A model generated the notes under the pieces. That model made no database searches. It was not told where the DNA came from and saw nothing but the letters and a program-made list of their open reading frames with translations. Below, in pieces: positions 921-64,000 of a stretch of 64,000 bases of DNA. The position numbers were made by a program, and so were the translations under genes. How positions within the stretch are numbered: position 1 is the stretch's first letter; the number at the start of each line of letters is the position of its first letter. The DNA comes from an uncultured Clostridia bacterium (GTDB lineage Bacteria > Bacillota > Clostridia > TANB77 > CAG-508). The stretch covers positions 4,933 through 68,932 of the forward strand of contig CAKOSX010000005.1 of the NCBI GenBank assembly GCA_934119935.1, given 5' to 3'.

Positions 921-1030
921 TACATTTTAGGGACGGAGAAAAAAATGTACATTTTAATAGAATTAATATATACTGTACATTTTTTTCTCCGTCCCCGAAT
1001 TGTACCGAATTGTACACTAATTGTACAAAC
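921..1030. repeat. Family-A palindromic repeat pair with a short loop (GGGACGGAGAAAAAAATGTACA ... TGTACATTTTTTTCTCCGTCCCC), followed by three AATTGTAC sub-repeats
   Basis: The inverted copies were read directly at 930-952 and 974-996. The same motif recurs at 9249, 42051, 50578/50793, 62271/62455 and 63013. Confidence 0.85.
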
Positions 1031-2927: not shown

Positions 2928-3749
2928 TTAGGCTACTAACTCGGAATGTTCTCTGTATTGAACAGGGGACATTCCTTTTAGTTTGCTCTTAATTCTTCTG
3001 TTATTATAATATTCTATATATTCAATTATATTATTTTCTAATTCTTCTATATTTTTATACTCTTTTTCTTTTATATAATAGAGCTCTGATTTTAATATTC
3101 CAAAAAAGTTCTCTGCACATGCATTATCTAAACAATTTCCTTTTCTTGACATACTTTGCCTAATACCCTTTTGTTCTAATAAATATTGATATTGTTTCAT
3201 TTGATACTGCCATCCCTGATCAGAATGTAATATTAAATTGGTATTATCTGGTATTTTATTAAATGCTTTTTTTAACATATCTACTACTTGATTAAATACT
3301 GGATGTCGAGATAAATTAAAGCTTATTACTTCACCGTTAAACAAATCTACTATTGGTGATAAATAAAGTTTATCATTATTAACTTTAAATTCCGTTACAT
3401 CTGTAGCCCATTTTTGGTTTGGCTTATCTGCCTTAAACTCTCTTTTTAATAAATTATCTGCTATTTTTCCTATTGTTCCTTGATATGAATTATATCTTCT
3501 TTTTGGTCTTTGAATGCTTTGTAATCCCATTATTTGCATTATTCTTGCAACTGTCTTATGGTTTATTATATAGCCACGATTTCTCATTTCTAATGTTATT
3601 CTTCTATAACCATAACGTCCTTTATTTTCATTAAATATAGATAAAATTTCGTCTTTTTCTGCCTTATATTTATCTTTTTTCTTCATTTTTTTTAGATTAT
3701 AATAGAATGTACTTCTTGGTATTTCTGCTAATTTTAATAATTCTCTCAA
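2928..3749 (-). CDS. IS3-family transposase OrfB (DDE integrase core), probably made as an OrfAB fusion
   Basis: rve-type core (WATDVTEF..., HSDQGWQY, NACAENFF). The frame stays open upstream (VIVVDELRHKYS) into the orfA overlap. Confidence 0.9.
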   Translation of the reverse strand: MRELLKLAEIPRSTFYYNLKKMKKKDKYKAEKDEILSIFNENKGRYGYRRITLEMRNRGYIINHKTVARIMQIMGLQSIQRPKRRYNSYQGTIGKIADNLLKREFKADKPNQKWATDVTEFKVNNDKLYLSPIVDLFNGEVISFNLSRHPVFNQVVDMLKKAFNKIPDNTNLILHSDQGWQYQMKQYQYLLEQKGIRQSMSRKGNCLDNACAENFFGILKSELYYIKEKEYKNIEELENNIIEYIEYYNNRRIKSKLKGMSPVQYREHSELVA

Positions 3750-3781
3750 GCTATATTTGTGCCTTAATTCATCGACAACAA

Positions 3782-4291
3782 TTACTTTTTCTTGTTCTCT
3801 CGCTTGATTCTTTCCTGAACTAAGGCATTTAATTTTTTTAAGTATTCATTCTCCATTCTAAGTCTTTGATTTTCTGCGATTAAATCTTCTTCAACTTCCT
3901 TGTTCAAATTTTTCTTTCTTGGTTTAGAACTCATATTTTTCGACCTTCCACGTCGTTCTATATACAAACCTTGTGGTCCTTCCTCATAATATATACGTTC
4001 CCATTTACTAACTACATAATCTCCTGCTAAATTAAAATGAATTGCTGTTTCATGACATGATAAATGGTTCTCATGCATGTATTCTACTACATTTTGTTTA
4101 AAATTTCCACTATAACTTGATCTCTGATTTTTCATTAATCCTACATATCCATTTTCTTTGTATTTTCTAACCCATCTAAGAACGGGGGAATATGCTATAC
4201 CAAAGTGGTCGGCTGCTGTTTGATATCCAACATTATTTTCTAAATAATATTTTATAACCTCTAATTTAAATTCACTCGAATATTTACTCAT
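3782..4291 (-). CDS. IS3-family transposase OrfA (HTH)
   Basis: Short HTH protein with a leucine-zipper-like C-terminus ending in NKKK, in the 0 frame upstream of orfB. Confidence 0.9.
   Translation of the reverse strand: MSKYSSEFKLEVIKYYLENNVGYQTAADHFGIAYSPVLRWVRKYKENGYVGLMKNQRSSYSGNFKQNVVEYMHENHLSCHETAIHFNLAGDYVVSKWERIYYEEGPQGLYIERRGRSKNMSSKPRKKNLNKEVEEDLIAENQRLRMENEYLKKLNALVQERIKRENKKK
3785..3793 (-). other. probable -1 programmed frameshift site (AAGAAAAAG) joining orfA to orfB
   Basis: The orfB frame is -1 relative to orfA, and an A-rich slippery run sits directly before the orfA stop. This is the usual IS3 architecture. Confidence 0.6.
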
Positions 4292-8299: not shown

Positions 8300-9313
8300 T
8301 TATAATGTAGTAATTTCCACTCCCGTATAGTAATGTTTTATAATCTGTTCATAATTGTTCCCTTGTTTAGCCATGCTATCAGCACCGGTTTGACTCATTC
8401 CAACTCCATGGCCATATCCCGTTACCGAGAATTTTATTTCACTCTCATTTATTTCTGTTTTAAAGTTAGCAGACCTTAATCCTAATAAATTTCTTACTTC
8501 AACTCCGGATAATTCTAAGTTTCCAATTTTTATTGTTTTTACTCTATTTCCTTGAGTATATTCTAGTACCTTTATACAATCACTTTCATCATAATTTATT
8601 GTAAATTCAGGATGTTTTTCTTTCATCTTATTTTCGAATTCTTGCTTGGTAAATACTGCTTCAGATTGATATTGGCTGTATCCCTCTTCACCCGCAGTCT
8701 CCACACTTTGCAAATATGGTAGATTGGCTCCACCCCACACATTTGAAACTTCTTCGGTTTTTCCCCCGCTATTCGAATGAAAAAAAGCATCTATCACTTC
8801 TCCATTATATGTTACCACTTTTCTTGAAGTTGAATTTACAGCTTCTTTTATTTTATCCCAATTACTTTCTCTTTCACTTTCTTCCCATCTTGCGAACCTG
8901 TCTTCCTTCGAAATCCAAGCCTGACAACACGCAGAATTATCACAAATATCTGCTCCTTCATGTTTATTAGAGTTATGTTCAATAATATACCTTGTATATG
9001 TTCTTGCAACAACAGCTTGAGCCTTCAATGCTTCTTCTTCAAAATTTGCTGGCATCTCAGCAGACACAACGCCTAATAAGTATTCTTCCATTTTCATCTC
9101 TTCTATACTGTTATCTTTTGTATGCAAAATCTTCACTGTTAAATCTTCGCCCAATAGGGACGCCCCCTTTTGAGCGAAGTTTTCTTCATCATTTTGTTGC
9201 ACATTATTGCTGATTTCTTTGTCTTTTTCAAGTTCTCCGACTCGTTTTTTGTACAATTTTTTCTCCGTCCCCAAACTGTACAAATTGTCCAGTAAATATA
9301 ATCGGTATGGCAA
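8300..9313 (-). CDS. spoIID: stage II sporulation protein D (SpoIID/LytB lytic transglycosylase domain); 5' end disturbed by repeats
   Basis: VVARTYT, HSNSGGKTE and GHGVGMSQTGA motifs. The track start is a TTG, and the membrane anchor is in another frame (see 9228-9359). Confidence 0.85.
   Translation of the reverse strand: MPYRLYLLDNLYSLGTEKKLYKKRVGELEKDKEISNNVQQNDEENFAQKGASLLGEDLTVKILHTKDNSIEEMKMEEYLLGVVSAEMPANFEEEALKAQAVVARTYTRYIIEHNSNKHEGADICDNSACCQAWISKEDRFARWEESERESNWDKIKEAVNSTSRKVVTYNGEVIDAFFHSNSGGKTEEVSNVWGGANLPYLQSVETAGEEGYSQYQSEAVFTKQEFENKMKEKHPEFTINYDESDCIKVLEYTQGNRVKTIKIGNLELSGVEVRNLLGLRSANFKTEINESEIKFSVTGYGHGVGMSQTGADSMAKQGNNYEQIIKHYYTGVEITTL
9145..9179. repeat. Family-C hairpin repeat copy inside the spoIID linker coding region
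   Basis: CTTCGCCCAATAGGGACGCCCCCTTTTGAGCGAAG closely matches the reverse complement of the dnaK-dnaJ terminator hairpin at 52084-52116. Confidence 0.7.
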
Positions 9314-9359
9314 ATGTAGCCAATATGATTAGCATTACAATTATTATTAAATTCTTCAT
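9228..9359 (-). CDS. short ORF encoding a signal-anchor helix (MKNLIIIVMLIILATFAIPIIFTG...), likely the displaced N-terminus of SpoIID
   Basis: GGAG SD then ATG, about 20 nt after the sigF stop. The ORF runs through the family-A repeat and stops at TGA. It is offset by one nucleotide from the spoIID body frame. Confidence 0.5.
   Translation of the reverse strand: MKNLIIIVMLIILATFAIPIIFTGQFVQFGDGEKIVQKTSRRT
9249..9287. repeat. solo Family-A repeat inside the spoIID 5' region
   Basis: TTGTACAATTTTTTCTCCGTCCCCAAACTGTACAAATTG. Confidence 0.85.
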
Positions 9360-9377
9360 CATTTTCTCCATAATAAT

Positions 9378-17020: not shown

Positions 17021-17129
17021 CGATAGTTCTTATTTTTATAAGTTCTCAACATGTCGTGCTTGGTCGGAGCTCCTTCGGACTCCTCAAAAGGCGCACTTCC
17101 AGTTTCGGTTTAAAAAATAAGAACTATCG
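17021..17129. repeat. Family-B palindromic element, copy B1 (conserved ~60-nt core inside copy-specific inverted arms)
   Basis: Core CAACATGTCGTGCTTGGTCGGAGCTCCTTCGGACTCCTCAAAAGGCGCACTTCCAGTT. Arms CGATAGTTCTTATTTTT / AAAAATAAGAACTATCG. Confidence 0.85.
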
Positions 17130-20394: not shown

Positions 20395-20535
20395 CACTCC
20401 ATTTACATTTAATGGAATTAAATATAAAACGTTTGTTTGTGTTTGTCAAGCATTTTTTATATTTTCCTAAAAAAAAAGTTGTATTCTTCTAAATAGATAA
20501 TACAACCATTTTTCACTTAATACATATATAAATTT

Positions 20536-20620
20536 TGGTGGAGATGAAGGGAGTTGCCAAGCCGCGTCGGGAAAATTGTCCACTGGACAATTTTCTATTC
20601 CTCCTTTTCGACTCCCTAGA
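20536..20620 (-). repeat. distal att-like unit: 21-nt tmRNA 3'-end core plus a 64-nt conserved arm
   Basis: TGGTGGAGATGAAGGGAGTTG, then GCCAAGCCGCGTCGGGAAAATTGTCCACTGGACAATTTTC... Nearly identical to 25063-25147. Confidence 0.8.
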
Positions 20621-24948: not shown

Positions 24949-25062
24949 CCTTTCGTTTGGATGATTTTTATATTGTTTTTAAACAACAAAAAAATCAACC
25001 AGATTTATTTTCTGATTGATTTTTGTATCTATCTGTTTTATTAGTTCGAACAGATACGTCAT

Positions 25063-25147
25063 TGGTGGAGATGAGGGGAGTTGCCGAGCCGCGTCGGGAA
25101 AATTGTCCACTGGACAATTTTCTATTCCTCCTTTTCAACTCCCTAGA
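25063..25147 (-). repeat. proximal att-like unit: 21-nt tmRNA 3'-end core plus a 64-nt conserved arm
   Basis: TGGTGGAGATGAGGGGAGTTG, then GCCGAGCCGCGTCGGGAAAATTGTCCACTGGACAATTTTC... It lies only 51 nt from the true tmRNA end. Confidence 0.8.
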
Positions 25148-25198: not shown

Positions 25199-25560
25199 TG
25201 GTGGAGATGAGGGGAGTTGAACCCCTGTCCAATATTCTTTCCATATACGTTTCTCCGAGTGCAGTTTGTTATTTAATTTTCCCTGTAAAATTCATTAACA
25301 AACAAACGGATTTTACAAGTAACCATTTGTTTTACCTACTGTTTTAATGGCTAAAACAGTGTTGTTATCCTACTAATTGACGCCTTATCTAAGACCGTAG
25401 GCCTTCTTAGTAAGACGGGCCGCCTAAGCTTAGGCAGCGTATGCTAATTCTGTATTATCAGCGTTTATTTTTATTTCTGCTTTTTTATAGTGGCCGAAGC
25501 AGCCATCCACTACTCGCTACATATACTTCTGGGATACTGTCGAAAACCAAATACATCCCC
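25199..25560 (-). ncRNA. ssrA: transfer-messenger RNA (tmRNA)
   Basis: The 5' end GGGGATGTATTTGGTTTTCGACAG pairs with the 3' end CATCTCCACCA. T-arm AGGGGTTCAACTCCCCT. Tag reading frame GCT GAT AAT ACA GAA TTA GCA TAC GCT GCC TAA encodes ADNTELAYAA. Confidence 0.93.
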
Positions 25561-29502: not shown

Positions 29503-29617
29503 ATGAGATATATTAACTTTTTAGAAATTCAACTGGAAGTGCGCCTCTTGAGGAGTCCTAAGGAGCTCCGACCAAGCACGACATGTTGATATTTCGTAAA
29601 AAGTTAATATATCTCAT
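29503..29617. repeat. Family-B palindromic element, copy B2 (opposite orientation to B1)
   Basis: Conserved core at 29530-29589. Copy-specific arms ATGAGATATATTAACTTTTTA / TAAAAAGTTAATATATCTCAT. Confidence 0.85.
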
Positions 29618-34477: not shown

Positions 34478-34594
34478 ACTTTGAAAATAATTTCAATTTT
34501 TGAATAAATCAACTGGAAGTGCGCCTTTGAGGGGTCGAATGAGCCCCGACCAAGCACGACATGTTGATTTTTCAAAAATAAATTTTTTCAAAGT
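34478..34594. repeat. Family-B palindromic element, copy B3
   Basis: Conserved core at 34510-34568 with copy-specific AT-rich inverted arms. Confidence 0.85.
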
Positions 34595-42046: not shown

Positions 42047-43051
42047 TTAATTGTACAATTTTTCCTCCGTCCCCAAAATGTACCCTACATCAATCTTATT
42101 TCCTCTTAGAAAATCAGAAATTGCCATTCTCTTTGAGTTTTCTCCTTGTATTTCAAGCACTTGTAGTATTCCTTCATTCGCCTTTATGTATAAGCCCTTT
42201 TTTTCGTCTGAAAACAATACGGTCCCGGCTTGCATTTTGTTTAAATGGTATTTGTATTCTTCTAATTCTTGAAATTTTTCTAATAATTCATTTTCTGTTA
42301 ATGTTTGTACTTTCCAGAATTTTATCTTTTTGCCGTCTAGAAATGTGTATGCTCCCATTATTGGATTTAGTCCTCTTACGAGATTTTTTATCTCTTGAGC
42401 AGTCTTGTTTTCCCAGTCTATTTTTGCCATTTCTTTAGATAGCATTGGAGCCATAGTTCCTACTTCTGGTTGTTTAGTTCTTGTGGCAGTTCCATTCTCA
42501 ATTTCTTTTACTGTTTTTATTAATAGATTTGCCCCTATCATTTTTAATCTATCCCACAATTCACCAGTAGTTTCATCTTCTCCTATTTCGACTTCTTCTT
42601 TTAATATCATGTCTCCAGTATCCATTCCAGCATTCATAAACATAGTGGTTACACCTGTTTTCTTATCTCCGTTTAGTACAGCCCACTGGATTGGTGCAGC
42701 GCCTCTATATTCTGGCAATAAAGATCCATGAACGTTTACACATCCATATTTTGGAATATCTAATAATTCCTGTGGCAAGATTTTTCCATAAGCCACAACA
42801 CAAATTAAATCTGGATTTAATTTCTTTACCTCCTCCAAAAATTCTGGATTATTTCTAACTTTTACAGGTTGATAAACTTGCAATTTTTTCTCTATTGCAT
42901 ATTCTTTTACAGGAGAAGCTACCATCTTCATTCCTCTTCCTTTTGGTTTATCTACATTTGTAACAACCCCAATTATATCATATTTTGCTTCATATAATGC
43001 TTTAAGCGACTCTAACGCAAAATCCGGTGTTCCCATAAATAAAATTCTCAT
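42047..43051 (-). CDS. fmt: methionyl-tRNA formyltransferase (last ~8 codons and the stop are supplied by a family-A repeat)
   Basis: Full-length Fmt similarity (HGSLLP, RGAAPIQ). The C-terminal ...GTEEKLYN is encoded by the repeat at 42051-42085. Confidence 0.93.
   Translation of the reverse strand: MRILFMGTPDFALESLKALYEAKYDIIGVVTNVDKPKGRGMKMVASPVKEYAIEKKLQVYQPVKVRNNPEFLEEVKKLNPDLICVVAYGKILPQELLDIPKYGCVNVHGSLLPEYRGAAPIQWAVLNGDKKTGVTTMFMNAGMDTGDMILKEEVEIGEDETTGELWDRLKMIGANLLIKTVKEIENGTATRTKQPEVGTMAPMLSKEMAKIDWENKTAQEIKNLVRGLNPIMGAYTFLDGKKIKFWKVQTLTENELLEKFQELEEYKYHLNKMQAGTVLFSDEKKGLYIKANEGILQVLEIQGENSKRMAISDFLRGNKIDVGYILGTEEKLYN
42051..42085. repeat. solo Family-A repeat overlapping the fmt 3' end
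   Basis: TTGTACAATTTTTCCTCCGTCCCCAAAATGTACCC. Confidence 0.85.
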
Positions 43052-49772: not shown

Positions 49773-50516
49773 CTATTTTTCCAACTCATATAAAATATTT
49801 CCTGCCATTACAAGTCCCGCAGTTTCTGTTCTTAAAATTCTCTTTCCGAGTGAAACAAATTTAACATTTTTTTCATCTAGTAATTCTATCTCTTTCTCAG
49901 AAATTCCACCTTCAGGGCCTATCACAATTGCTATGTTGTACTCTTGTTTATTTTGGCTCTCTAATTTTTTTAGCTCTGCTTTTAACATATTATGCTCTTC
50001 ATTTTCATATGCAACTAATACAACATCATACCCGTCTACATCAATTTCTTTTGTCTTTATTATACTTTTTATATTTGGAATAATGTCTCTCATAGATTGT
50101 TTAGCAGCTATCTCAGCAATTTTTTGCCATCTATCCAATTTTTTACTAGCGACCTTTTCATCAAGCTTTACAACCGTTCTTTCCATTATCACAGGTACAA
50201 TATTATTAACCCCGACTTCAGTATTTTTTTGAATAATAAGCTCCATTTTTTCAAACTTCGGTACCCCTTGAAATAGCGTTATATGCACATTTGATTCTGT
50301 TGTTTTGCTTATTTTTTCTATAATTTCACAATTAACTTCATTTTTTGTATACTGAGTAATCTTTGCATTATAATTATCTCCAGTCACCTGATTGCAAACT
50401 TGAATTTCATCATCTTTTTTCATTCTTAATACATTTAATATATGGTTCACGTCATCTCCATCTATTATAATATTATCGTTTTTTATTTGTTCTGGTTTTA
50501 CAAAAAATTTAGACAT
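49773..50516 (-). CDS. rsmE: 16S rRNA (uracil1498-N3)-methyltransferase RsmE
   Basis: PUA-like N-terminus and SPOUT knot motif (IGPEGGISEKE). Confidence 0.88.
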   Translation of the reverse strand: MSKFFVKPEQIKNDNIIIDGDDVNHILNVLRMKKDDEIQVCNQVTGDNYNAKITQYTKNEVNCEIIEKISKTTESNVHITLFQGVPKFEKMELIIQKNTEVGVNNIVPVIMERTVVKLDEKVASKKLDRWQKIAEIAAKQSMRDIIPNIKSIIKTKEIDVDGYDVVLVAYENEEHNMLKAELKKLESQNKQEYNIAIVIGPEGGISEKEIELLDEKNVKFVSLGKRILRTETAGLVMAGNILYELEK

Positions 50517-50577
50517 ACAAAACCTCTCTTTACAATTTTATGTTTACATTATACCAAAAAATAGTTTAACTAGCAAT

Positions 50578-50830
50578 AGTACAATTTTTACAATTTTGTA
50601 CAATTTGGGGACGGAGAAAAAAATGTACGTACTAAATTAATAAATATAAAAAAAAATAATACTTTAATATTTTATAAAACATCAACACGTTGTGCTTGTT
50701 CGGAGCTACTTCGGGCTCCCCAAAAAGTGCATTGCCGGTTTCGTTTTTAAAATATTAAAGTATATTATTTTTCGAGAAGAAAAAATACAAAAACGTACAT
50801 TTTTTTCTCCGTCCCCAAATTGTACAAAAA
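50578..50830. repeat. composite nested palindromic element: family-A terminal inverted repeats enclosing family-B copy B4
   Basis: The A arm ...TTGTACAATTTGGGGACGGAGAAAAAAATGTACGTAC (within 50578-50632) has its inverse at 50793-50830. The B arms plus core lie at 50656-50769. Confidence 0.85.
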
Positions 50831-50837
50831 TTATATT

Positions 50838-51989
50838 TTATCCAAATATTCCTCTCTTTTTTACTGGAGGTTGTTCGTTCATAGTTTTTGCAAGTTCTAC
50901 TAGTAGGTCTCTTTGTTCTTTAGACAAACGTTTTGGAACTTGTACCTGTACTGTGAATATTAAATTTCCTCTATAGCCAGAATTAATGTGTACAAATCCT
51001 TTGTCTTTTATTGTGAATTTTGTACCTGTTTGTGTTCCTTCTGGTATTCTATATGTCGTTTTTGTTCCATCTACTAGTGGAATTTCTAGTTCTGCACCAA
51101 GTGTTGCTTGTGTAAATGTGATTGGAATATCACAATACACATTATCATCTTTTCTAGTAAATATGCTGTGTCTCTTCAAATTTACTGTTACATATATATC
51201 TCCATTTGGTCCACCGTTTGTTCCTGGTTCACCTTCGCCTCTTAATACTACTGTTTGACCATCGTCAATTCCTGCAGGTATTTTTAGATTTATTTTAGCC
51301 TGTTTTCTTACCGTTCCTTTTCCAAGACATGTATCACAAACATCTTTTATTACTTTACCAGTTCCATGACAATTTGAACATGTTGTTTGGACTCTCATTT
51401 GTCCTAATAGAGTAGTCTGCATCTTTGTAACAGTTCCTTTTCCTCCACATATAGAGCACGTTTCTGGATGTGTTCCAGGTTTTGCACCTGTACCAGAACA
51501 TGTAGGACATTTTTCATTTCTAGTAATATTTATTTCTTTATTTACTCCACTATATGCTTCTTCAAAAGTAAGGTTTACACTATATTTCAAATCTGCACCT
51601 TTGCTTGGAGCATTTGGATTTCTAGATGATGACCTTCCAGTTCCGAATCCAAATAAATCTCCTAAGTCTCCGAAAATATCACTAAATCCATCAAATCCAG
51701 ATGTTGAATACGTGTATGTTCCCCCACCAAATGGACCTCCAGCACCGCCAAAACCTTGGCTTGGATCTGCTGTTCCGAATTGGTCGTACATTTTTCTCTT
51801 TTGCGGATTAGACAAAACTTCATATGCTTCATTTACTTCTTTGAATTTTGCTTCTGCTTCTTCTTTATTATCTGGATTAGCATCAGGGTGATATTTCTTT
51901 GCAAGACGTCTATATGCTTTTTTTAGTTCGTCATCTGTTGCTGTTTTTTCAACACCTAAGACTTCATAATAATCCTTCTTTTCAGCCAT
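50838..51989 (-). CDS. dnaJ: molecular chaperone DnaJ
   Basis: J domain (HPD), G/F region and four CxxCxGxG zinc motifs. Confidence 0.96.
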
Positions 51990-52083: not shown

Positions 52084-52116
52084 ATCGCCCAAAAAGGGGC
52101 GTCCCTATTGGGCGAT
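52084..52116 (-). terminator. dnaK-dnaJ intergenic hairpin terminator or attenuator (Family-C repeat copy)
   Basis: ATCGCCCAA/TTGGGCGAT stem with a T-run on the minus strand. Confidence 0.7.
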
Positions 52117-54011: not shown

Positions 54012-54085
54012 CTAAAGTTATTTTTCTATATTAAATTTTCTTAAGTTCTATCTATATAAATTTTAAAATTAATAACATATAAATT

Positions 54086-55723: not shown

Positions 55724-55874
55724 ACTGTGTATATAATACATCGTAAGTTAGCAAAAGTCAATAGAGATTGCTAATTTTATTGTGAAAGTTTTGTGAATTT
55801 TCGCTCGTTTACTACATAATTTTTACAACATAAAAACTCGAGACAGTCTATATAGACCATCTCGAGGCAGGAGT

Positions 55875-56237
55875 TTATTCTTTTCGGTTATTTTTAATTC
55901 TTTTTACGTTCTCAGTCTGTTTAAAAATTGATTTCAAAAAAATTGGTATAATGATAGTTATAATTATAAGTCCCGATGCAAAAATCACAAGATTTTTATC
56001 AATCTTAAATTTACTATCAATTACCATTCCAGCAATAATAGCTATAAGAAACCATCTTTCAGTTCTCGCCATAATATCATAATTATAAACTATGGTTATT
56101 GGTATCTGCATTGCTACTACGAAAATAGCATACCGAACTGTCAAAATGGGAATTTTCGTTAAAAATATACTTATGTTTATCCCCATAATGACTCCAAGAA
56201 TAATTGCATTTAGTTTCATTGAAAATTTCATATGCAC
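55875..56237 (-). CDS. hypothetical small integral membrane protein
   Basis: Four hydrophobic helices. No family recognised. Confidence 0.45.
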   Translation of the reverse strand: MHMKFSMKLNAIILGVIMGINISIFLTKIPILTVRYAIFVVAMQIPITIVYNYDIMARTERWFLIAIIAGMVIDSKFKIDKNLVIFASGLIIITIIIPIFLKSIFKQTENVKRIKNNRKE

Positions 56238-56305
56238 ACTCCCTTTGTTATATTATTTTCTGAAACATATTTAATTTATACCATATTTTTCACTTTATGT
56301 AAAGA

Positions 56306-57394
56306 TTATACATTAAATTTAAATAATACTATATCTCCATCTTGCATTACATATTCTTTACCTTCTGAACGAACTAATCCTTTTTCTTTTGCAGCTGTCA
56401 TCGAGCCTTCTCTCATTAAATCTTCATAAGAAACTATTTCTGCTCTAATGAATCCTCTTTCAATGTCTGAGTGAATTTTTCCTGCAGCCTGTGGAGCTTT
56501 TGTTCCTTTCTTTATTGTCCAAGCTCTTACTTCTGGCTCTCCAGCTGTTAAGAATGACATTAATCCAAGTAAATCATAGCTTGCCTTTATTACTTTATCT
56601 AGTCCAGATTCTTCCAAACCTAGTGCTTCTAGCATTTCTTTTTTATCATCGCCATCTAAGCTTGATAATTCTTCTTCTATTTTTACACAAAGCTTTATAA
56701 CTTCTGCCTTGTCTTGTTTTGCATATTCTTTTACACTATTTACATTTGCATCATTTTCATCTAATAATTGATCTTCTGAAACATTTGCAACATATAAAAT
56801 TGGCTTCATTGTTAATAAGAATCCATCCCTTACTATTTCTAGTTCTTCATCTGTATACTCCAAGCTTCTTGCTGGCTTGCCATTTTGCAAAGCATCTCTT
56901 ACTTTTTTCCATGTATCAAATTCTAATTGATATTTCTTATCACCTTTTATTAATTTACTTGCTCTATCAATTCTTTTTTCAACAGTCTCTAAATCTGCAA
57001 AAACTAGCTCTAAATTAATAGTTTCTATATCTCTTACTGGATTTATACTTCCATCAACATGTATTATGTTTGAATCTTCAAAACATCTTACAACTTGGCA
57101 AATTGCATCTGTTTCTCTTATATGAGATAAAAACTTATTTCCTAATCCTTCACCTTTGCTTGCTCCTTTTACCAAACCTGCTATATCCACAAATTCAATT
57201 ACAGCATGTGTAACCTTTTGAGGATTATACATCTTTGCTAGGTTGTCCAATCTCTCGTCTGGCACTGGAACTACTCCAACATTTGGTTCTATTGTACAGA
57301 ATGGATAATTTGCACATTCTGCTCCTGCATTTGTTATTGCATTAAATAAAGTACTCTTTCCTACATTTGGAAGTCCTACAATTCCTATTTTCAT
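56306..57394 (-). CDS. ychF: redox-regulated ribosome-binding ATPase YchF
   Basis: GLPNVGKSTLFN G1 motif and a TGS-like C-terminus. Start set at MKIGIVG; the track ORF is extended upstream. Confidence 0.93.
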   Translation of the reverse strand: MKIGIVGLPNVGKSTLFNAITNAGAECANYPFCTIEPNVGVVPVPDERLDNLAKMYNPQKVTHAVIEFVDIAGLVKGASKGEGLGNKFLSHIRETDAICQVVRCFEDSNIIHVDGSINPVRDIETINLELVFADLETVEKRIDRASKLIKGDKKYQLEFDTWKKVRDALQNGKPARSLEYTDEELEIVRDGFLLTMKPILYVANVSEDQLLDENDANVNSVKEYAKQDKAEVIKLCVKIEEELSSLDGDDKKEMLEALGLEESGLDKVIKASYDLLGLMSFLTAGEPEVRAWTIKKGTKAPQAAGKIHSDIERGFIRAEIVSYEDLMREGSMTAAKEKGLVRSEGKEYVMQDGDIVLFKFNV

Positions 57395-57520
57395 TATATC
57401 TTCGACCTTTCTTTTTCTTATAGCTATTATAATATAACACAAATTATTACTTTTGGCAATTAATTTATTTAAGGTTCCATACCGGAACCCCAAATAGAAT
57501 TTTAAATATATTTTTCACTA

Positions 57521-58369
57521 TTATTTGAATAATTTATTAAACGTATTCTTTCCAACTATTCCATCTTGTGATAATCCATTTCTTTTTTGAAATTCTCGTA
57601 TCGCACTTTCTGTTGCAGGTCCGAATATTCCGTCTGCATTAATGTTAAATAATTTGCAAATAAGCATTGACTGAATTAGCCAAGTGATGTTTCCTTCTGC
57701 TCCTCTTCGAACATTTATGCAGGCATTGTAAGTGTTAGTTCCAAATATTCCATCGACTGCTAGTTTACTTCCAAACTGTTTATTTAATTCTGTTTGTAAT
57801 CCCTTCACCAATGCCTTCTTCGTCTCGTTTCCATAAATATTATCTACTGAAATATTTAAGCCATATTTTTCATTTAAAGAGGTTTGTATTGTAGCTATTT
57901 TTCCCTTTTCTTGGCTTGGTTTTGATACTCCTGTTTCATTTGAATTTGCTATTTGATCAAATGGAAAATTGTCACCCGGGCAATTTGTTGCATTTACATT
58001 TTTATGAACTTGTACTGTGTTTATTCCATATTTATTTTTTAAAAAATTTACAAGTTCTCTTCCAGCCTTAATCTCCTCCTCTTGCATTATTTCTTCCTTA
58101 TAATCTCCTTCAAAGCAAATTCCCAATGAATCATAATTTGCACCATATGCATGAGCTCCAACTTTATCCTCTGGACGAAGTCTATATATTGTGCCGTCTT
58201 TTCTTACCAGAAAGTGATATCCAGCTCCACTCCAACCGTTGCTTAAATGCCACCTGTGAATATCTTCAGCTGAGCACCTTTTTGCAGCAGCATGATGCAA
58301 AATTATTCTTTTAGTAGAGCTACGTGTATCCATTTGTTTAAAATTTAAATTTGTATTAATTATATTCAT
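57521..58369 (-). CDS. N-acetylmuramoyl-L-alanine amidase (Amidase_2/PGRP) with tandem peptidoglycan-binding repeats; endolysin-like
   Basis: The HHAA...GYHF...NCPG amidase_2 pattern plus PG_binding_1-like repeats (DGIFG...). Confidence 0.85.
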   Translation of the reverse strand: MNIINTNLNFKQMDTRSSTKRIILHHAAAKRCSAEDIHRWHLSNGWSGAGYHFLVRKDGTIYRLRPEDKVGAHAYGANYDSLGICFEGDYKEEIMQEEEIKAGRELVNFLKNKYGINTVQVHKNVNATNCPGDNFPFDQIANSNETGVSKPSQEKGKIATIQTSLNEKYGLNISVDNIYGNETKKALVKGLQTELNKQFGSKLAVDGIFGTNTYNACINVRRGAEGNITWLIQSMLICKLFNINADGIFGPATESAIREFQKRNGLSQDGIVGKNTFNKLFK

Positions 58370-60479: not shown

Positions 60480-62270
60480 ATGGCTTTTGATGGTATTGTA
60501 ACTAAAGCAGTCGTTTCAGAATTGAATACTTGTCTTATTAATGGAAAGATAAATAAAATTTTTGAACCTAATAAAAACGAGATTTTATTGGGTATTTATT
60601 CTGGTGGAAAAAATTATTGTTTGAATATTTCTATAGATTCAGTAAACTATAGAATTAATTTAACTACCAGTTCTAAGCCTAACCCTCAAAATGTTTTGAA
60701 TTTTTGTATGGTTCTTAGAAAACATTTGACTGGTGGAACTATAAAAAAAATCTATTCTACTGGCTTGGAACGTATTGTTTTTATTGATGTTGATGTATAC
60801 AACGAGCTTAATGATTTAATTACAAAAACTCTTGTTGTTGAACTTATGGGAAAGCACAGCAATGTTATCCTACTAAATTCAGAGCATATAGTTATCGATA
60901 GCTTACGTCATCTAAATAAGTTTGATAATTCAAATAGAGACATCTTCCCTGGTTCGAAATATTTGAATATTGAAAGTGATAAAAAGGACTTTCTTGCAGT
61001 TAGAACTTTTGATGAATTTTATAGAGATGTCACAATAGATTGCGGAAATTTACCATCAACATTATCTAAAATTTACAATGGATTTGGAAAGAAAAATATA
61101 TCATATTTATTAGAAACATTGAATATTCCAACAGCTGTTTCTACTAATGATTTGAAAAAAGTTTACTCATATTTAAAAGATTTATTTGCAAGCATGCCTG
61201 ATAATGTTGTTTTAAAAGAATATGCCGCTGACAAGAAAGACTATTTTGCTTATAACTCTATAAATGACGGACTTTCTGTAAATTTCTTTTTAGATGATTT
61301 TTATACTTCAAAAGAACAAGCTGAGCAGTTTAAACAATATAGAGATACAGTATTAAAGCTTGTTTTAAATCATGTTGGAAAAATAAAAGAAAGAATTAGC
61401 ACAATAGATTCAAAAATTGCCGATTGCACAAATGCTGAAAAATACAGATTATATGGTGAGTTAATAACCTCTAACTTATACAGAATCCCAGATTATCCAC
61501 AGTCTGAAGTTACTTTGGAAAATTATTATGATAACAACAATTTAATTACTATACCTTTAGATGAGAAATTTAGTCCATCTAAAAACGCCAAGAATTTTTT
61601 CAAGAAATATAGAAAATTACAAAATACAATAGCTATTGTAGAAAAGCAAAAAGAATTGGCCGAAGCCGAACTATCATACTTGGATAGCATTGTATACGAA
61701 TTAGAAAATGTTTCCACAATTGAAGATATAGACAATATTTATTCTGAAATTTGTGATAATTTAATTTTTGGAAAAAATGCAAATACAGTAAATAATCATG
61801 TTTATAATAGCCACGATAAAATTGCTAATTCAAAGAATTCAAAATCTAATAAGCAGTCAAGCTCAAGCAATATGCCGGAGAAGCGTGATATTGATGGTTA
61901 CACTGTTTACATTGGAAAAAATAATAAACAAAATGATTATTTAACTTGCAGACTCGCACAAAATTCTGACATTTGGTTCCACACAAAAGATATACATGGA
62001 AGCCACGTTGTATTAAAAGTAGATAGTAACCCTAATGCCTCTCATGTAAACTCAGAAAATCCTGGTATATCTAATACATTCAGTGTTCCAGACGCCGTTT
62101 TATATAAATGTGCATCTGTTGCAGCATACTACAGCAAAGCCAGAATGTCTCAGAATGTGCCAGTTGACTATACCTTAATAAAATACGTAAAGAAACCTAA
62201 TGGTGCAAAACCAGGAATGGTAATATACACAAATAATAAAACCATATATGCAAATCCACAAAATATATAA
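60480..62270 (+). CDS. rqcH: ribosome quality control protein RqcH (NFACT / FbpA family)
   Basis: NFACT-N domain, coiled coil and NFACT-R motif (DIWFHTKDIHGSHVVLK). Confidence 0.9.
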   Translation: MAFDGIVTKAVVSELNTCLINGKINKIFEPNKNEILLGIYSGGKNYCLNISIDSVNYRINLTTSSKPNPQNVLNFCMVLRKHLTGGTIKKIYSTGLERIVFIDVDVYNELNDLITKTLVVELMGKHSNVILLNSEHIVIDSLRHLNKFDNSNRDIFPGSKYLNIESDKKDFLAVRTFDEFYRDVTIDCGNLPSTLSKIYNGFGKKNISYLLETLNIPTAVSTNDLKKVYSYLKDLFASMPDNVVLKEYAADKKDYFAYNSINDGLSVNFFLDDFYTSKEQAEQFKQYRDTVLKLVLNHVGKIKERISTIDSKIADCTNAEKYRLYGELITSNLYRIPDYPQSEVTLENYYDNNNLITIPLDEKFSPSKNAKNFFKKYRKLQNTIAIVEKQKELAEAELSYLDSIVYELENVSTIEDIDNIYSEICDNLIFGKNANTVNNHVYNSHDKIANSKNSKSNKQSSSSNMPEKRDIDGYTVYIGKNNKQNDYLTCRLAQNSDIWFHTKDIHGSHVVLKVDSNPNASHVNSENPGISNTFSVPDAVLYKCASVAAYYSKARMSQNVPVDYTLIKYVKKPNGAKPGMVIYTNNKTIYANPQNI

Positions 62271-62493
62271 TTGTACAAAGTGGGGACGGAGAAAAAAAAG
62301 TACATTTTCATAATAATCAAAAGAATCAACACTATGATATTTTTAAAACGAAACCGGCAGTGCGCCTTTGAGGGGTCCGATAGGAGCCCCGACCAAGCAC
62401 AACGCGTTGAGTCTTTATAAAATATCATGGTATTGATTTTATATACAGAACTTTCGTACATTTTTTTCTCCGTCCCCATTTTGTACAAATAAT
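62271..62493. repeat. composite nested palindromic element: family-A terminal inverted repeats enclosing family-B copy B5
   Basis: The A arm TTGTACAAAGTGGGGACGGAGAAAAAAAAGTACA has its inverse at 62455-62493. The B arms plus core lie at 62324-62438. The element starts on the base after the rqcH stop. Confidence 0.85.
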
Positions 62494-62494
62494 T

Positions 62495-63019
62495 TTATGC
62501 TGGCGGATTTATTATTGCCTGTATTTCTTCATCTTGTCTTAATTCTGGCACGATAAAGTCATAGGCTCTTTTATCCTGCTTTATCGCTTCTATTGCTATT
62601 GTTTTATCTGAACGCAAACGCTTGCTTGCATATTTAATAATTAGTCCTTTATTTTTTACCGCTTCAAGCACAACATCGTAATCGTCTCTCAATTCTTTGC
62701 TTACATAATATAAAATTTGACCATCTGTTTTGGCAGCTTTTAAAGCTAATTCCTTGTCTGCTTTTAGTTCATCTGATGCATAACAAAGAACCCAGCCTTT
62801 TTTCTCAACTGCTTGCATCAATATTTCTCTATCCGCTTTTAATCTTTTTGAGGCAAATTCCAATGCTCCACCATCTTTTGTAACGGCTTTCATTACTAGA
62901 TCTTTGTCGTCTTGAAACTCCGGATCTGCTGCATCCAATAAAAGTCCATCTTCTTCTATTGCTTTTTCCACATATTCTTTGTCATTGCTATGTTCTTTTA
63001 CATCGTCATAAGTGTACAT
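62495..63019 (-). CDS. DUF4116 repeat protein
   Basis: Repeated (D/E)KE(L/I).(L/M)KAV..(D/N)G..L.YAS..L(K/R).D units. Start set at MYTYDD, whose SD and ATG lie inside a family-A repeat. Confidence 0.7.
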   Translation of the reverse strand: MYTYDDVKEHSNDKEYVEKAIEEDGLLLDAADPEFQDDKDLVMKAVTKDGGALEFASKRLKADREILMQAVEKKGWVLCYASDELKADKELALKAAKTDGQILYYVSKELRDDYDVVLEAVKNKGLIIKYASKRLRSDKTIAIEAIKQDKRAYDFIVPELRQDEEIQAIINPPA

Positions 63020-63046
63020 TTTTTCCTCCGTCCCCAAAATGAACGC
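63013..63046. repeat. solo Family-A repeat providing the SD and start codon of the DUF4116 gene
   Basis: The minus strand reads GGGGACGGAGGAAAAAATGTACAC. Confidence 0.85.
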
Positions 63047-63074
63047 CAAGCCGATTGCCAATATGATCGTTCTT

Positions 63075-63317
63075 TTATATAGCGCTCGTTTTGTATTCTA
63101 TGTTTTCCATGTATGGATATATTTCTTTTAGTCTCTTATGTGTAATTATTGTTAAACGTGGTAATGGATTTTTTAGATTTTCTGTTAGTAACTGCTGTGT
63201 GTAGCAGTTTTCTGATGTTTTGAATAGCTGATATCTATTCCTTACATATGTGTAGAAAATTATATATCCATTATCCAATTCGTTTTCCATTCGTTCAAAT
63301 GAGTATTTGCCGTCCAT
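63075..63317 (-). CDS. hypothetical protein (80 aa)
   Basis: ORF only. No family recognised. Confidence 0.4.
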   Translation of the reverse strand: MDGKYSFERMENELDNGYIIFYTYVRNRYQLFKTSENCYTQQLLTENLKNPLPRLTIITHKRLKEIYPYMENIEYKTSAI

Positions 63318-63393
63318 AAGTTTGATTTTTTCCTTTCATTTATTTGTTACGCCAAGATTTAGAAAGAAATAAATTTTGACCCATCAAAATTGT

Positions 63394-64000
<607 letters not shown>

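Follow-up and report, generated by a model that had tools for sequence, protein, structure and literature searches.

Nested hairpin repeats in a gut Clostridia genome: probable REPIN-like doublets and a candidate Y1/HUH transposase partner

What are the nested palindromes at 50578-50830 and 62271-62493 in contig CAKOSX010000005.1 of an uncultured Clostridia bacterium, and what could have spread them? The window considered here is the whole stretch of 64,000 nt, in which we name three repeat families, A, B and C. An earlier note had described terminal repeats of family A enclosing a family-B element, and its implicit model was that of a MITE (a miniature transposable element with inverted repeats). 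We propose, with a probability of about 0.72, that the flagged elements are doublets resembling REPINs, the hairpin-forming doublets of repetitive extragenic palindromes (REPs), with B inside them. Family A would then be the cognate repeat of a single-locus Y1/HUH transposase of the RAYT (REP-associated tyrosine transposase) or TIRYT type, encoded elsewhere in genomes of the clade.

The composites and the 31-nt unit from which they are built

The three-layer palindromes are read where they had been reported, together with a short doublet near the start of the window. Their parts are as follows.

50578..50630, + strand: left A arm of composite 1 (31-nt unit at 50598-50628; 37-nt arm at 50594-50630)
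From 50578: outer iterations of composite 1, two to three degenerate ~10-nt GTACAATTT repeats ahead of the left unit
50647..50761, - strand: family-B hairpin forming the interior of composite 1 (conserved core about 50683-50750; copy-specific arms taatactttaatat and atattaaagtatta)
50793..50829, - strand: right A arm of composite 1, its outer end 8-10 nt from the dnaJ stop (50838-50840)
62268..62303, + strand: left A arm of composite 2; TTGTACAA starts one base past the rqcH (NFACT) stop (62268-62270)
62331..62445, + strand: family-B hairpin forming the interior of composite 2 (arms aataccatgatat and atatcatggtatt)
62456..62491, - strand: right A arm of composite 2, its outer end 3 nt from the stop of a DUF4116 gene (62495-62497)
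921..1028, no strand: short A doublet (arms at 921-956 and 969-1004; three GTAC iterations to 1028)

The arms of composite 1 (50594-50630 and 50793-50829) are complementary over 37 nt at 100% and lie 162 nt apart; those of composite 2 (62268-62303 and 62456-62491) are complementary over 36 nt at 92% and lie 152 nt apart. In the short doublet, the extended arms of 36 nt are 86% complementary and 12 nt apart, and their cores are separated by 24 nt. Folded as a single strand, each composite forms one hairpin, with folding energies of -94.1 and -94.0 kcal/mol and z values of -12.4 and -11.9, in agreement with the suggestion that the whole 220-250 bp could fold in this way. The tight fit against the rqcH and dnaJ stops, the copy-specific AT-rich arms around the B core and the absence of any relation between family A and the inverted repeats of the IS3 element in the window were likewise confirmed. 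The gene rsmE lies downstream of composite 1, the DUF4116 gene converges on rqcH at composite 2, and the short doublet adjoins the rny terminator (1030-1060).

The entity that recurs is smaller than these composites. Family A is a 31-nt unit with sharp borders, GTAC-N5-G-GGGACGGAG-R-A5-W-T-GTAC, which is AT-rich apart from GGGGACGGAG and carries a GTAC tag at each end. The logo of 102 distinct units gives the consensus GTACAWWTYG-GGGACGGAGRAAAAAWT-GTAC, and its information is confined to positions -10 to +20 around the core, with background level outside. A search of the window for the core GGGACGGAGAAAAAAATGTAC with up to 3 mismatches returned 9 matches, compared with 0.00 expected (none in 100 shuffles), and 209 units were counted in a 1.17-Mb sample of related contigs (about 1.2 Mb for the gene search below). 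These sampled contigs or loci are given L-numbers, which serve also as strain labels. Units occur solo, in tandem arrays and as inverted pairs, solo and tandem forms being the majority. Among adjacent pairs in the sample, 18 are direct, and every inverted pair has the polarity that places GGGG outward (28/28; opposite polarity 0/28). One array, with a period of 44 nt, is five periods long in one strain and two in a second. An A unit is present in roughly a tenth of the intergenic regions. In addition to what the earlier note had described, the window contains three solo A units (9251-9281, 42053-42083 and 63014-63044, all on the - strand) and three stand-alone B elements.

The A family is real, multi-copy, non-coding and common to several related species. 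An exact-pattern scan of species-representative genomes located the motif in low-GC (about 30%) human-gut Clostridia, namely Clostridium sp. CAG:245, uncultured Clostridium UMGS1476, HGM13643 and metagenome-assembled genomes from the Hadza. At least 120 metagenome loci carry it, from the human gut wherever the record names a source, and a scanned collection of viral contigs contained zero A motifs. Single matches in Geobacillus and in Eubacterium sp. 14-2 lie in GC-rich sequence and are taken as probable chance matches. The earlier note had held that an absence of further copies, or perfect conservation at orthologous sites, would speak against mobility; what was found is many copies, and sites that are different or decayed in relatives.

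Family B is a hairpin of a different kind. Its GC-rich core of ~70 nt is preceded by an A/T tract and followed by a T/A tract; at the outer ends are a copy-specific arm X, on the A/T side, and the inverted arm X'. Over 18 distinct copies, evaluated against shuffles and slid partners, a consensus hairpin of 25 pairs has 90.9% of its cells paired, compared with 76% in shuffles and 40-52% with slid partners. Compensatory changes occur in 15 of the 25 pairs (e.g., GTGC/GCAC to GCTC/GAGC, and GGGG/CCCC to GGAG/CTCC). B is a structurally constrained hairpin with the appearance of a terminator. The stand-alone copies of the window lie 23-49 nt behind stop codons, in either orientation.

17033..17117, - strand: stand-alone family-B hairpin, 49 nt past the stop of a transketolase-like gene
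29518..29602, + strand: stand-alone family-B hairpin, 27 nt past the stop of an M24 peptidase gene
34496..34578, + strand: stand-alone family-B hairpin, 23 nt past the stop of a DUF212 gene

The B core is present in every long interior of an A pair (148-166 nt) and in no short one (0-76 nt). The arm sequences divide the composites carrying B into three subfamilies, all of which occur at two or more loci or in two or more species, and within them the A arms are matched (0-3 mismatches) and the spacers are homologous. Therefore, the A-B-A composite is itself a repeated unit. The inverted, hairpin-forming doublets that define REPINs are thus found here, with matched arms where B is carried and unmatched ones, as unlike as random units, in the 52- and 76-nt doublets. 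The latter are probably two independent units lying behind convergent genes. The composite may have originated by B invading an A doublet, or B may have been captured. A half-deleted B was seen in L105 (reverse-strand position about 7123; forward about 1454-1473), with only the 3' half of the core left and both copy-specific arms kept and still complementary. In E-value mode, Rfam offered no family that fits either element type, and the sub-threshold matches of the long hairpins to microRNA precursors are meaningless.

A Y1/HUH gene between family-A units

A tblastn search of the window found no Y1 protein of the kind described here, in line with the earlier statement that it lacks a cognate transposase. 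The autonomous element that the note had suggested looking for, a gene bracketed by TTGTACAA...GGGGACGGAG ends, was found in related contigs, and it is of the Y1/HUH type, not a classical insertion sequence (IS). This candidate is an open reading frame (ORF) of 229-245 residues (L050, 1081-1815, - strand), present also in L134 and L151. The L050-type protein matches Pfam PF01797 Y1_Tnp with 36 bits (cut-off 23) and NCBIfam NF047646, REP-associated tyrosine transposase, with E = 2e-18 and 66.6 bits. By sequence, its closest solved structure is 4ER8_A, E. coli TnpA(REP), with the HUH and YIYxNPVKxG motifs in the alignment. Residues H44, H46 and Y104 (A2) are invariant, i.e., the HUH motif and the tyrosine are conserved. 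The only structure whose fold matched significantly to an AlphaFold model based on 34 homologues (pLDDT, the predicted local distance difference test, 85.8) was 4ER8_A (E = 9e-4, probability 1.00); next in rank came the TnpA structures of IS608, ISDra2 and IS200. The C-terminal region of the model, 167-228, is helical; Pfam helix-turn-helix (HTH) matches to it are weak (E = 0.03-0.05), all below cut-off.

The surroundings of the gene and its homologues connect it with family A (percentages give identity to the L050 protein).

L050, reference protein: A unit 4 nt past the stop and two units upstream, GGGG-out as in all pairs
L148-150, 68%: A units of the GGGACGGGG variant on either side; position behind a plsC-like gene, syntenic with L050
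L152/153, 44%: inverted repeats TGGGTGCTCATTTTGGGGACGGAGAAAAAAATCATCA of 37 nt, perfect, core TTTTGGGGACGGAGAAAAAAAT
L154, 43%: inverted (G/A)GGGACGG units, GGGG-out
L162/163, 42%: clear GGGGACGGAG unit right behind the stop; upstream merely an 11-nt partial match
L164/165, 38%: inverted repeat of 21 nt, AAGGGGACGGTTCTCTTGTCC, GGGG-out
L166/167, 35%: two AGGGACGGAGG units on each side, inverted, GGGG-out

Bracketing by A-type units in the polarity of the A pairs was observed in six of seven homologue contexts (35-99% identity). Synteny with other contigs stops exactly at the A units that bracket the L050 gene: the left flank in L134 differs from that of L050, L144 has L050's left flank and unit without the gene, and CAG:245 (L013) keeps both neighbor genes with nothing but A units between them. 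One Y1 locus per lineage was counted in the sampled 1.2 Mb. It is the only transposase-type gene bracketed by inverted A ends in that sequence; the other brackets hold ordinary genes, and no gene resembling a DDE transposase lies between A ends in the related contigs. An IS200-like TnpA in L141 was considered as partner and rejected; it has unrelated hairpins of its own, and a nearby A-like match with 3 mismatches lies in coding sequence.

In two of the RAYT-like genes (L050 1780-1835 and L148 5960-6010), the codon at which the conserved N-terminus (ARQPR/ARKPR) calls for ATG reads ATA, and each ATA is preceded by a two-codon mini-ORF (ATG-xxx-TAA) and a Shine-Dalgarno (SD) sequence. Apparently this is a conserved, non-canonical start, which would hold expression low.

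We propose the following arrangement and history for the doublets. Two inverted 31-nt A units would bracket an interior of ~150 nt that holds an independent B hairpin, and in the master copy the Y1 gene, lying between A units with GGGG outward and the A-run and GTAC inward, would occupy the position of B. By homology with TnpA(REP) and the TnpA of IS200/IS605 (PMC3333891, PMC3479197), the enzyme is expected to recognize A units on single-stranded DNA and to cut and rejoin them at or beside their GTAC tags. Units and doublets would in this manner be spread in trans. After placement, as comparisons of strains and species show, copies change by slippage, by loss of one arm (leaving solo units), by flip-flop of the interior, by deletions and rearrangements at unit ends, and by replacement with another hairpin family. 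B would stand alone behind genes or be carried as cargo of A doublets, the A-B-A arrangement now being repeated as one unit.

This proposal has to be compared with the MITE model, in which the composites are deletion derivatives of a DDE insertion sequence, have terminal inverted repeats of ~35 bp and transpose by cut-and-paste, which duplicates the target site. In keeping with this model are the length of the composites (220-250 bp) and of their terminal inverted repeats (31-37 bp), their non-coding, AT-rich sequence and the copies and subfamilies at different loci. Known bacterial MITEs (Correia, RUP, Nezha and others; reviewed in PMC10969869) share with the composites the size, the terminal inverted repeats, the lack of coding sequence and the long hairpin potential, and they too insert near or inside genes and affect reading frames. 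However, no copy displays a target-site duplication or flanking direct repeats, there is no DDE parent, and the sole transposase-type gene between inverted A ends in 1.2 Mb is the Y1 gene; the IS3 element of the window is polymorphic yet unrelated. In addition, the terminal repeat is commonest on its own, and an element defined by such repeats leaves the many solo and direct tandem units unexplained. We regard a MITE of this type as very improbable. What stands of the earlier proposal is a real, multi-copy, non-coding family with an autonomous partner in related contigs; its basic entity is the 31-nt unit, mostly solo or in tandem, rather than a MITE of 220-250 bp.

RAYTs are single-copy Y1 transposases with flanking REPs, usually arranged as REPIN doublets; those of group 1 occur in Clostridia, and abundant repeats have been linked to groups 2 and 3 only (PMC5581495). 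As in the REP/REPIN-RAYT systems of Enterobacteria and Pseudomonas, the repeats described here are short, extragenic and of high copy number, and form singlets, hairpin-forming inverted doublets and clusters (PMC3116915, PMC5581495, PMC3333891, PMC3479197). A single-copy, vertically inherited Y1 gene between the same repeats is a feature of those systems; the gene found here has one locus per lineage in 1.2 Mb and a synteny shared by two species at 68% identity. In both cases, moreover, diverged species retain elements at orthologous sites, and E. coli TnpA(REP), 4ER8, is the top structural match of the protein. In contrast, a classical REP is an imperfect palindrome rich in GC, with a GTAG (or CGTC) tag at its 5' end; the A unit is AT-rich, has GTAC tags and folds weakly, and its protein scores below the NCBIfam equivalog cut-off.

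The closest likeness is to TIRtrons. Di Nocera et al. (2013) described RAYT-like genes with long flanking inverted repeats as TIRYTs, in TIRtrons; many TIRYT repeats carry GGGGWSAS and are found as singles, dimers and groups, and Clostridia or Firmicutes are not mentioned in that account (PMC3733652). Quentin et al. (2018) placed most TIRYTs in TnpA-Y1 subclass 2.1, with a C-terminal HTH and the consensus GGGG[AT][CG]A[CG] (PMC6006769). The system found here shares the RAYT-like Y1/HUH gene between inverted repeats that are not GC-rich GTAG hairpins, a GGGG-led motif (GGGGACGG), the dispersal of repeats as singles, dimers and groups, and a protein longer than IS200 TnpA with a helical C-terminal extension. 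GGGGACGG agrees with GGGGWSAS at 7 of 8 positions, position 7 being G, not A. The system differs in its host, neither account (PMC3733652, PMC6006769) giving a Clostridia example for the subclass, and in repeats that look denser (about 9 per 64 kb, compared with "moderately abundant" in the same two accounts). Further differences are the GTAC at both unit ends, the placement right behind stops in gene orientation, the second hairpin family carried as cargo by some doublets, and the weakly detectable C-terminal HTH (Pfam E about 0.03-0.05). From these sequence comparisons, family A appears to be a new TIRYT/RAYT-associated repeat family, neither a classical GTAG REP nor a DDE-derived MITE.

Several observations weigh against the explanation proposed here. 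The NF047646 score of 66.6 bits lies below the curated 80-bit cut-off. A lone A unit is a weak hairpin, of about -4 kcal/mol in three of five variants and with none in one, and covariation was looked for in the unit stem of the GTAC family and not found. With its weak stem and no covariation in the GTAC family, the A unit thus has neither the GC-rich stem of a classical REP nor its GTAG tag. The end tags vary with lineage (GTAC..GTAC, ATGA..TCAT, CTG..CAG and TGAGAA..TTCTCA), and four of five tag variants are self-complementary inside the unit. This may point to a weak stem at the level of the unit, its loop formed by GGGGACGGAG, a suggestive sign only, the predicted energies being small and the GTAC family showing no covariation. 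An all-against-all comparison of the flanks of 144 loci, which served as empty-site search, turned up slippage, deletions, inversion and replacement, and neither a target-site duplication nor a clean polymorphism in which a whole unit or doublet with defined ends is present in one strain and absent in another; the check proposed in the earlier note thus came out negative. The window copies are fixed in all strains sampled, and current mobility is thus only inferred. The RAYT-bearing contig ODHV01000414.1 shares a metagenome with ODHV01000787.1, which is 94-98% identical to the window across 46.7-64 kb; it may nonetheless come from another species than the window. No gene was tied to family B. 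Finally, A units are common, hence some bracketing could be coincidence, an objection against which the six correct-polarity contexts out of seven argue.

Changes between strains and species

Comparison of strains shows how the copies change. The interior of composite 2 (62304-62455, 152 nt) is inverted in L027 and L032, with flanks that are 97-98% identical; as reverse complement it matches the window at 146 of 152 positions, compared with 105 of 165 read directly. This flip is what one would expect of an inverton, in which a site-specific invertase would act on the A arms and neighboring genes would be controlled by how the interior is oriented. The interior is nearly palindromic, however, without an ORF or a convincing promoter, and no invertase gene is adjacent. 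Composite 1 has one orientation in the three strains compared, with a varying number of outer GTACAATTT iterations (L068, L081), and most A units lie outside any invertible pair. To account for the flip, recombination between the inverted arms of 36 bp or a re-insertion suffices, and an inverton is the least probable of the alternatives that we considered.

The rqcH/DUF4116 site has a different content in other relatives. At about 85% identity, a decayed short A-A pair without B occupies it, and in two further relatives one or two C hairpins are found instead. In another lineage, a post-stop A unit is swapped for a C hairpin between strains with 98-99% identical flanks, and this swap adjoins a 560-nt indel holding a small ORF. 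Strain comparison also shows that tandem A units are gained or lost by slippage, and that deletions and synteny breaks start exactly at A-unit ends.

The doublet downstream of rny is present in six of the seven fetched contigs with identical Rny, the seventh, L157, diverging within the rny terminator. Strains with identical Rny keep the doublet and are therefore uninformative about its insertion. It is absent at this site in the related species L002/L143 (86% identical), which has a doublet upstream of rny. A doublet shared downstream of rny with UMGS1476 (L002) had been considered; realignment places that one upstream of the gene, so the sites are non-orthologous. Also upstream of rny, at 2928-4291 in the window, lies an IS3-family element (HTH_Tnp_1 and rve ORFs) that some strains with identical Rny have and others do not (L155-L161). 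The insertion, which has no relation to family A, is active or recent.

Family C is a 31-nt GC-rich hairpin, TCGCCCAAAAAGGGGCGTCCCTATTGGGCGA, found in the window at 9147-9177 and 52085-52115 and with 48 matches in the loci. One window copy lies within the coding sequence of spoIID, where it encodes FAQKGASLLGE, and the other between dnaK and dnaJ; C and the A core have GGGACG in common. At 54083, 55803-56306 and 57400-57521, the genes of the window and of L027 are 95-98% identical and whole intergenic segments differ. L027 has a 121-nt insert, two C hairpins in place of a 395-nt segment of the window that includes a small ORF, and about 950 nt extra with two small ORFs. Such intergenic regions seem to behave like cassette sites.

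Other repeats of the window concern different subjects. At the gathering threshold of Rfam, only the transfer-messenger RNA (tmRNA) and 2 tRNAs pass in the whole window. The 3' end of the tmRNA gene (TGGTGGAGATGAGGGGAGTTG, with 65 nt more in two copies) occurs threefold, at 20535-20620, 25062-25147 and 25199-25560, which suggests that one or two islands have integrated at ssrA. The segment from 20.6 to 25.1 kb contains a GH10-like glycoside hydrolase, and Pfam recognized no integrase in it. An 11-nt tandem array (TAATTATTTCT, about 11 copies) at 63382-63502 lies partly in the ORF at 63473-63910 (- strand).

Gene ends and the meaning of the family

A preference for gene ends is evident from the site clusters. 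At 28 of 56 clusters, an A unit overlaps the stop of a same-strand ORF or lies at most 25 nt downstream of it, compared with 6 of 56 for the mirror arrangement, and six of the nine window units are placed in this way. From the GC skew, the G-rich strand of the three solo units carries leading-strand sequence (equal to lagging-strand template sequence); this bias coincides with gene orientation, and the two biases are inseparable. With units lying right behind stop codons, they become part of genes. The three solo units of the window are examples.

9251..9281, - strand: solo A unit in the 5' coding region of spoIID; removal of the 31 nt restores one ORF
42053..42083, - strand: solo A unit at the end of fmt; it gives the last ten codons and the stop (..GYILGTEEKLYN*)
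63014..63044, - strand: solo A unit at the start of the DUF4116 gene; its GGAGG and ATG are the ribosome-binding site and start codon (start 63019)

The gene spoIID (window 8300-9361, - strand) is split in all strains of the species into a membrane-anchor peptide of 44-58 residues and the SpoIID part. The unit has GGAG...TTG in frame with the downstream SpoIID part, which starts at the unit's own start codon (TTG/ATG). In a related species, a decayed A copy is read in frame within spoIID (..IRFEDGEKNVKET..), and more distant orthologues have no unit. Two A6 runs flank the junction, and frame-restoring transcriptional or translational slippage at these runs is conceivable. At fmt, the synteny of strain L080 breaks exactly past the inner GTACA of the unit. 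At the DUF4116 start, L043 has no unit and L127 has it in duplicate; in L093, the unit stands 25 nt upstream of the gene's own SD.

Such positions raise the question of whether the elements are selected by the host at 3' ends, for termination, protection of mRNA 3' ends or insulation of convergent genes, and are spread by recombination instead of transposition. The bias of the 56 clusters and of the window units is in keeping with this, as is the observation that one post-stop position holds an A or a C hairpin depending on the strain. So is the convergent rqcH/DUF4116 site, with A-B-A in the window and a decayed A-A pair or C hairpins in relatives, and so is the B core, whose GC-rich stem is enclosed by an A-tract and a T-tract and shows compensatory changes. 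Conversely, a terminator scan reported none at either composite (50300-51000 is empty, and the sole site in 62100-63300 is outside the element), no T-run follows the A hairpins, and rny retains its own canonical terminator beside the doublet. Units also lie within coding sequence, splitting spoIID, and arrays of 2-5 units in tandem would be pointless as terminators. Host selection is an unlikely explanation, the likeliest of the alternatives nonetheless, and one compatible with a transposase origin. A host function at 3' ends alongside a transposase-driven origin is possible.

A bolder reading, to which we give little credence, is that the system is more than selfish DNA, and that a domesticated Y1 transposase and the hairpin modules A, B and C are used by the host to build and exchange gene 3' ends and starts. 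If this were true, post-stop A units would supply stops, ribosome-binding sites and start codons, and the flip-flop of A-B-A would set an orientation-dependent terminator or RNA-stability element between genes. Unit ends would be recombination points at which small gene cassettes enter and leave intergenic regions, as in several strain comparisons.

Repeat families driven by RAYTs are well studied in Proteobacteria and hardly described in Clostridia, for which the accounts cited here list RAYT-like genes without abundant cognate repeats. If the doublets described here are of this type, a defined 31-nt unit and a candidate enzyme make the pairing directly testable, and natural variants, in which the tags differ around a constant GGGGACGGAG core, would help to derive the rules of recognition. 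Consequences for genes are visible: spoIID is split, and units have donated a start codon to one gene and a stop to another. The family also offers an explanation for the strain-variable intergenic regions of these reduced gut genomes, and it is relevant to the annotation and metagenome assembly of these organisms.

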